In this document: piece by piece, positions 8,197-9,298 of the stretch
Numbering within the stretch: position 1 is the first letter of the stretch
How the letters are laid out: every line of letters starts with the position of its first letter
DNA from: Octopus vulgaris
Lineage: Eukaryota
Direction: 5' to 3'
DNA length: 64,000 nucleotides
Assembly: GCA_951406725.2 (NCBI GenBank)
Contig: OX597819.1
Coordinates: forward strand, 39,866,001-39,930,000
The notes under the pieces: model-generated
Told to the model about the DNA's origin: nothing
Database searches by the model: none
What the model saw: the letters and a program-made list of their open reading frames with translations, nothing else
Program-made: the position numbers and the translations under genes

Positions 8197-8910
8197 TATA
8201 TATATATATATGTATATATATATATATATATATATATATACTTTTTGTGTGTGTGTATATACATATATGTATGCGTGAATGTGTGTGTGTATAATATTCA
8301 GAAAGTAGGTAAGTGTATGCAATGCTTTATAGAACATATACGTGTTTCAGTAAAATGCCGTAATAATTACATAACAGTTGTAGAAACATTATGCTATCTC
8401 ACATTTTACCCTATCTGTGTTCCGCAAAAAGATATGATGACTAATGTTGAAACCTCCAAATATATGCACTTTTCTCCTTACGTGAATTATTAACAATTTC
8501 ATATTCCCTACAGTATAGCAGGCAACAGAAAAACATGTCATGGATATGTGAAGACACGTCTCTCTCTCTCCCCCTCTCTCTCACACAGACACAAACATAA
8601 GTAGGTGCCACCATAAATATATATATATATATATATATATATTTATTTATATATATATATATATATACATATATATACATATATATATATATACATACAT
8701 ATATATATATATATATATATATATATATATATATAATAAATATTAGGGAATAAATCCAAATTTACAGGGAAAAAAACAGATTTAGGATTAAATCCAATTT
8801 TATAGTAAAATATTATAAAATATTATTAGAGACAAAACCACTATTTTGCAAAACAAACAAGGAAAGACTTAATCAATACATAAAATTTTAATAAATAGTC
8901 AAAAAAACCG

Positions 8911-8953
8911 CCACTACAATTGTTTCTTGTCTTGATCGACAATCTTCAGGTGG
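8911..8953 (-). ncRNA. Minimal type-I hammerhead ribozyme
   Basis: Reverse complement of 9014-9056. Confidence 0.85.
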
Positions 8954-9013
8954 ACTTCCAATAAGTCAGTTTCAAATTATGAAGTCATAATTTGAAACTG
9001 ACTTATTGGAAGT

Positions 9014-9056
9014 CCACCTGAAGATTGTCGATCAAGACAAGAAACAATTGTAGTGG
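9014..9056 (+). ncRNA. Minimal type-I hammerhead ribozyme
   Basis: ccac CTGAAGA ttgtc-gatcaa-gacaa GAAAC aatt GTA^ gtgg: intact core, stems I and II, palindromic stem III. Confidence 0.88.
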
Positions 9057-9298
9057 CGGTTTTTTTGACTATTTATTAAAATTTTATGTATTGATTAAGT
9101 CTTTCCTTGTTTGTTTTGCAAAATAGTGGTTTTGTCTCTAATAATATTTATATATATATATATATATATATATATATATATATATATATATATATATATA
9201 TATATATATATATATATATATATATATATATATATATATATATATATATATATATATATATATATATATATATATATATATATATATATATATATATA

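Follow-up and report, generated by a model that had tools for sequence, protein, structure and literature searches.

Complex insertions of Penelope-like elements (PLEs) show a characteristic layout, in which an inverted, 5'-truncated copy lies adjacent to the element at its 5' end and a tail is present at one end only (PMC8557442). The layout is repeated in sections of PMC8969392, and parts of PMC3846280 describe head-to-head palindromic junctions, for which self-priming is proposed. Among PLEs, the Hydra clade targets (TA)n, hammerhead ribozymes are universal in Hydra and canonical PLEs, and an inverted copy is listed for a Hydra family in the supplement (PMC8557442). Portions of PMC4209133 describe the motifs in PLE ends as dimer-type, report paired minimal hammerheads on opposite strands 100–700 bp apart, and find a single Schistosoma motif without activity. 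According to sections of PMC11167929, both target strands are cut and extended in vitro, two start sites bound the tail, and an anole PLE ribozyme cuts only with protein, uncut RNA being the main insertion template. Retrozymes are defined by tandems and linked to PLE ends in the relevant parts of PMC7229834 and bioRxiv 10.64898/2026.07.22.740005. For Octopus vulgaris, 336 recently active Penelope-like insertions have been reported in PMC13282606, the available portion of whose main text mentions neither hammerheads nor palindromes.

The locus considered here lies in a 64-kb stretch of Octopus vulgaris DNA, all of which was analysed and which is called the window below. Its 415-bp core (8735–9149) is probably, at an estimated 0.83, a recent stump-sized insertion made by PLE enzymes, most plausibly of the (TA)n-targeting Hydra clade, a link that rests on architecture. 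Like PLE complex insertions (PMC8557442; PMC3846280, in part), it has a head-to-head inverted, 5'-truncated copy at the 5' end, a palindromic junction, a type I hammerhead in the repeated 3' end and a tail on one end only. It differs from them in having no coding part, a spacer of only 2 nt and an 83-nt tail instead of the usually described 30–40 bp, and a motif search of the PMC8557442 supplement showed no homology of the hairpin to a described family. The length of the tail counts against a PLE reading, as do the small share of apex-crossing depth and the absence of a linked reverse transcriptase or endonuclease from the sequences compared, both described below; a target-site duplication would be unreadable inside (TA)n. 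With the Hydra clade, including Hydra-1_Obim, the locus shares the (TA)n target and the type I hammerhead (PMC8557442). The hammerhead of that clade lies about 100–240 nt from the 3' end (PMC8557442), and the cores of the hairpin lie 132 nt from the tail-less end and 215 nt from the tailed end. The Hydra-1_Obim ribozyme listed in the same supplement differs from that of the hairpin in stems and loops, and neither the supplement motifs nor the Hydra-like element of the window gave a sequence link between the repeated unit and Hydra elements. The layout is already published, and what is new is this family.

Structure of the hairpin and its flanks

Two arms, a loop and a one-sided tail make up the insertion, which is set between two microsatellites. 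The features, in window coordinates, are as follows.

8613–8734 (start about 8613), no strand: left target microsatellite, (TA)n-rich with some CA units
8735–8817, minus strand: one-sided tail of 83 nt, a 3' extension of the minus-strand copy, without mirror partner
8818–8982, minus strand: left arm, hammerhead-sense copy, running on into the tail
8911–8953, minus strand: type I dimer-type hammerhead motif, core start 8949, predicted cut after 8915
8983–8984, no strand: loop AG, 2 nt, head-to-head junction
8985–9149, plus strand: right arm, inverted, without tail, 165/165 identical to the left arm, abutting (TA)n directly
9014–9056, plus strand: type I dimer-type hammerhead motif, core start 9018, predicted cut after 9052
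9150–9297, no strand: right target microsatellite, pure AT run of 148 nt

Counted outward from 8982/8985, all 165 positions of the arms pair. The preliminary description of this DNA, made from the letters alone, had reported mismatch-free 165-bp arms, a one-sided tail of about 83 bp and long (TA)n flanks, all of which are borne out; it also placed the 2-nt loop correctly, but its hairpin of 330 bp becomes 332 bp when the loop is counted. The ribozyme-sense strands point away from the apex, which is therefore a head-to-head junction. The word TAATATTT stands at both 3' ends of the hairpin, next to the TA run, and the 250-nt unit has three occurrences of it, at the near end, 10 nt beyond that and at the far end. 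Stop codons interrupt this unit in every one of its three sense frames, and the copy is not an autonomous PLE. The tail contains an imperfect direct repeat (38 nt, 74%) and likely represents the stretch between two reverse-transcription start sites, a role assigned by analogy with parts of PMC11167929.

A SINE-like repeat (9298–9690), with 20 more matches in the window at 72–97%, adjoins the right TA run.

Hammerhead motif and predicted folding

Each arm carries a 4-bp stem I, CTGAAGA, a 5-bp stem II, GAAA, CAATTG and TA, with the core 33 nt from the loop and a helix III of 2 bp round a palindromic loop. The descriptor search gave eight hammerhead matches in the window against a mean of 0.1 (maximum 1) in 100 locally shuffled windows, and palindromic helix III occurs in four of the eight and in none from the shuffled windows. 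For the monomer, the active fold is computed at -5.9 kcal/mol and the minimum-energy fold at -7.8 kcal/mol, and single-strand folding is no better than that of shuffles (z 0.18). Two copies are predicted to co-fold as a dimeric hammerhead at -24.6 kcal/mol, 9.0 kcal/mol below two monomers. As modelled, the ribozyme is thus of the dimer type with an intact core and not a stand-alone canonical one; the earlier claim of a canonical intact hammerhead about 30 nt from the apex in each arm stands for the core and its position and fails for "canonical". The short helix I, the weak palindromic helix III and the predicted dimer resemble the minimal or dimeric hammerheads of metazoan PLEs in the sections of PMC4209133 that treat them. 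The Schistosoma pairs on opposite strands are 100–700 bp apart in the same source, and the cores of the hairpin are 69 nt apart within a perfect hairpin. Rfam gave no hammerhead at gathering score in the window, nor one among the 29 matches at E up to 10. Its microRNA-precursor matches are all below gathering score and reflect the perfect stem.

In the computed fold of a read-through RNA, the first stem II pair has a probability of 5e-20 and a pair of the long hairpin one of 0.99998. Such an RNA would form the long hairpin, with the ribozyme masked by the antisense arm, in keeping with the proposal that the ribozyme is preceded by its antisense in a transcript. The further proposal, that this arrangement serves as a built-in off-switch, is not supported. 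No second state and no selection for such a function were seen, and the ribozyme type is reported to be inactive as a monomer or without protein (parts of PMC4209133 and PMC11167929). Moreover, another element of the window (3826–4516) has its ribozyme in the spacer with no antisense copy, and PLE insertion has been described as leaving an inverted copy as a by-product. Masking of the ribozyme would arise as a side effect of hairpin geometry.

Related structures in the window

Six of the eight hammerhead matches, at four of six loci, sit in inverted-arm structures, with arm/spacer lengths of 165/2, 141/409, 1162/1692 and 90/188 bp. The first is the hairpin, and the others are listed here together with the frame found in one of them.

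3826–4516: perfect 141-bp inverted arms (3826–3966/4376–4516), 409-bp spacer, in (TA)n
21481–25633: 4-kb Hydra-clade-like PLE remnant, 1162-bp arms (1148 matches), 1692-bp spacer
23133–24503, minus strand: 456-aa asparagine-rich frame inside 21481–25633
about 47145–47607: 90-bp arms with 78 matches round a 188-bp spacer, an older element from a different hammerhead family, core 47305 (minus strand)

The hammerhead at 3826–4516 is slightly degenerate (core 4060, minus strand) and confined to the spacer. The 4-kb element, 12 kb from the hairpin, carries a pair of opposed hammerheads whose loop II is long (cores 25514, plus strand, and 21716, minus strand) and which end in GAAA-CAATTG-TA as those of the hairpin do; it is flanked by (TA)n and has, on one side only, a tail of about 116 nt. 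The older element has a one-sided extension of roughly 95 nt.

The 456-aa frame has an asparagine-rich insert (about 170 aa) ahead of an endonuclease domain, resembling the inserts of rotifer Penelope elements in parts of PMC3846280, and shows by eye CxCX5C, CxxC and CxH, the motifs that PMC8557442 (section 11 and supplement alignment) assigns to the Hydra clade. A search with the last 142 residues of the frame gave 3533 relatives (E up to 0.001), and the C-terminal domain matches P0090 at 36% over 133 aa (E 2e-23). Three long relatives look by eye like reverse transcriptase-endonuclease polyproteins, with a reverse transcriptase that Pfam does not name. Pfam recognized no family in the frame itself and a weak GIY-YIG in only 2 of 11 relatives scanned, and a word-index search found no relatives of greater length. 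Judged from its sequence, the 4-kb locus appears to be a coding PLE remnant of Hydra-clade-like type, an analogue of the hairpin and not a demonstrated parent. When the 250-nt unit is aligned with it, 122 of 200 shuffles align as well, and none of the five other window loci compared, this element included, shows similarity to the unit above shuffles (six comparisons, 75–196 of 200 as good). With the other hammerhead elements of the window the unit thus shares nothing outside the core.

Several further structures were observed in the window. A complex inverted structure in (TA)n at 36392–37842 has 577-bp arms (561 matches), a 261-bp spacer, internal direct and inverted repeats, and by eye a hammerhead-like core with palindromic CATATG that fails the descriptor. 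The descriptor matches at 13488 and 61441 (both minus strand) lie outside every inverted pair listed. Close to the hairpin, 4575–5311 and 7459–8196 form an inverted duplication of 738 bp (99%, 2.1 kb apart), each copy of which includes part of a 260-bp palindrome (5139–5397). Both copies end in a short GC-rich hairpin followed by CTAGT beside (TA)n, ends which we take to resemble those at the 3' side of Helitrons. An inverted repeat of 94–95% (6061–6525/6674–7071) is centred on a (TA)n run. The plus strand carries a broken mariner-type transposase (45908–46976; Pfam HTH_48, E 2e-19). On the same strand, a 398-aa frame (38243–39439) contains a zinc knuckle (zf-CCHC) and is probably a retroelement ORF1.

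The repeat family in sequencing runs

Runs with at least half of the sampled words of 8735–8984 were taken to hold the unit, which is present in 20 of the 24 listed runs (12 studies, 7 organism codes). All assembled contigs of four of these 20 runs, from three studies (here X1, X6, X2 and X3), were aligned to 8735–9000, giving 15339, 1247, 2746 and 2036 matching contigs, respectively. The unit belongs to an abundant, non-coding repeat family, as the suggestion of a non-coding mini-element had anticipated. Exact-pattern scans gave no match in viral contigs, prokaryote genomes or metagenome contigs (two patterns for the last). No RNA run is on record as a holder of the unit among the listed runs, which says nothing about expression. 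The family was not found in the literature searched, four motifs of the unit being absent from the PMC8557442 supplement, and it may be catalogued in Repbase or Dfam.

Past the loop, at 8987–8995, depth is 8351 in X1, 171 in X6, 29 in X2 and 738 in X3, so that all four runs, one of them possibly the source of the window, have contigs that cross the apex. At 8996–9000 the summed depth is 4777 in X1 and 14.5 in X2. The two outcomes that would have spoken against a hairpin family, an apex without spanning reads and an apex of unique occurrence, are therefore not what is seen, since the apex region recurs in family contigs. In X6, a contig of depth 119.2 turns back at 8985, where 20 letters mirror the arm; the end point listed for this joint is 8901. 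Its junction is 3 letters shorter than that of the window, with an identical 4-letter insertion on either side. Apex-crossing depth amounts to 0.008–0.54% of the summed ribozyme depth, or up to 17% with maximal contig overlap, depth not being copy number and contig overlap blurring the share. Loss of hairpin fragments from libraries may lower the apex depth further.

The ends of the unit recur as well. (TA)n is found at loose ends of family contigs, where tailed and tail-less ends both join it, and the tail-less end joined to (TA)n is seen in 39 contigs of X1 and 19 of X2. Towards the apex, summed depth drops linearly to zero, by about 1/31 per base, at about 8981 in X1 and 8979 in X3, which indicates a common boundary of similarity at about 8979–8981; in X2 and X6 it falls earlier or differently. 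Either a short element has its true 5' end at this boundary, or copies continue from there into sequence absent from the query. Among the 24 loose ends listed (216 more exist) there is no common upstream continuation, and no linked coding sequence is seen among those listed for family contigs.

Twelve substitution sites are listed, of which none is in the ribozyme core and one is elsewhere in the ribozyme, at 8921 in loop III (up to 49% of depth). The 8921 variant keeps the predicted dimer pairing through G-U, at -24.0 against -24.6 kcal/mol. No variant of at least 2% is listed between 8963 and 9000.

Age of the insertion and identity of the arms

The 165 pairs show no difference, which gives arm divergence a 95% upper bound of 1.8%, and by this measure the insertion is recent, as had been proposed. 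Variation within the family exceeds that between the two arms, only 2978 of the 15339 X1 contigs being at least 99% alike. At the substitution sites listed (2% or more), a single letter is nearly private to the window copy; it lies in the tail (8776), and the arms hold no such letter. The other inverted arms of the window show graded identities (141/141, 1148/1162, 561/577 and 78/90 matches). Active correction of the arms, also raised in the preliminary description, receives no backing from these identities or from the private letters, and it is not needed, since a recent insertion from one template explains perfect arms. The arms are likely identical through one shared template and young age.

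Proposed insertion mechanism

In the PLE explanation, a connection that the preliminary description did not name, a reverse transcriptase-endonuclease would cut both strands of a (TA)n run, and each cut end would prime cDNA synthesis on the element RNA, as the in vitro data in parts of PMC11167929 suggest. TAATATTT by the TA run could pair with the primer. Initiation at the far start site would give the tailed copy, from 8735 onward, and initiation at the near one the tail-less copy, from 9149 backward. Both cDNAs would stop at about the same 5' point, 33–35 nt upstream of the ribozyme core, and be joined head to head, so that the spacer corresponds to their difference in length, 2 nt here. 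The sequence implies that the template was uncut RNA, since in both arms the ribozyme is complete and extends across its cut site. Formation of the apex at the ribozyme cut site was considered and rejected, the apex being 68 nt upstream of that site.

Within the PLE explanation, copying from two primers is somewhat favoured. The two-primer route to inverted repeats is a step of the present analysis, and the available sections of PMC11167929 do not propose it. Two cDNAs would account for a mirror arm that ends at a recurring family terminus and for the spread of spacer lengths within one window, 2 to 1692 nt. Fold-back of a single, self-primed cDNA, as described in parts of PMC3846280, would give the same product and is a tentative second choice. 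The element RNA itself may be a dedicated non-autonomous element of about 250 nt or a truncated 3' end from a longer PLE, the balance leaning slightly to the former. No reverse transcriptase or endonuclease sequence linked to the hairpin family was found in the frames of the unit, at the five window loci or in the loose ends listed.

Alternative explanations

The strongest challenge to a hairpin built anew at each insertion is that the whole hairpin is an inherited mobile unit, re-copied entire from a master locus with the antisense arm kept as a lock on the ribozyme. The computed masking is in line with this, and the X1 apex depth (8351 and 4777), with the uniform stretch from 8963 to 9000, suggests several to many identical apices; a fixed 5' end of the RNA would, however, also yield recurring apices. 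The X6 contig with its different junction, whose own variant is mirrored in both arms, does not fit an inherited apex, and little of the family's depth crosses the apex. In addition, other hammerhead elements of the window have long spacers, with one ribozyme outside the arms, and a dimer-type ribozyme would already be off as a monomer (PMC4209133, in part), which together make an inherited hairpin very unlikely. Still less probable is a monomer of a non-LTR retrozyme, a circular RNA from head-to-tail arrays, integrated as an inverted pair by PLE enzymes. Non-LTR retrozymes are alike in being small, non-coding and AT-rich, with a type I hammerhead and probably PLE-driven (PMC7229834 and bioRxiv 10.64898/2026.07.22.740005, both in part). 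The size of about 250 nt, the low GC and the weak palindromic helix III match passages of PMC7229834, and excerpts of the preprint report retrozymes as derivatives of PLE pseudo-LTRs with many monomer copies. They occur as head-to-tail tandems and circular RNAs, whereas the hairpin locus has no tandem and consists of a single, tailed inverted pair. PLE insertion is marked by fixed ends and by a tail on one side, and the unit ends away from the ribozyme cut site. The joints listed include no tail-to-head joint, though with short contigs this is weak evidence for the whole family.

A DNA transposon of fold-back or MITE-like type, mobilized by a transposase and carrying the hammerhead incidentally, would have long inverted repeats, no coding capacity, a high copy number and a TA-rich target, all of which are present here. 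Its inverted repeat should be terminal, yet on one side 83 nt of family sequence extend beyond it, and (TA)n is joined by ends with and without the tail. Thousands of contigs share a conserved ribozyme core, with no core variant listed, and elsewhere in the window a PLE-type frame is enclosed in the same layout, so a transposon of this kind is highly improbable. Perfect arms with a 2-nt loop also look like a fold-back read, no single read or contig over the whole locus was seen, and one run may be the source of the window. A fold-back read would nevertheless mirror the tail and the flank too, and the mirror stops at the family terminus; depth continues past the apex (8987–8995) in all four runs from three studies, which leaves an assembly or library artefact as the least probable reading of all.

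Significance for the family and for PLEs

The preferred reading, a PLE-enzyme insertion, leaves room for different views of what is propagated. The view of a dedicated mini-element that keeps a fixed 5' end and has its mirror arm made anew with every insertion stands a little short of even odds. That it is a dedicated non-coding element of about 250 nt, driven by Hydra-clade enzymes in several related species and re-copied as a whole near-loopless hairpin with an inherited apex, is very unlikely; if true, the ribozyme would travel locked by its own antisense, and the genome would gain many sources of perfect double-stranded RNA.

PLE stumps are easily misfiled as MITEs or microRNA hairpins, and they could yield double-stranded RNA. 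The kind of element is not new; this locus adds a new family and, with it, a test bed. The origin of the inverted ends and one-sided tails of PLEs is still unsettled (PMC8557442; PMC11167929, in part), and a young, abundant family with approximately one 5' point and with differences mainly at the junction would offer a natural data set for distinguishing two-primer copying from self-primed fold-back.
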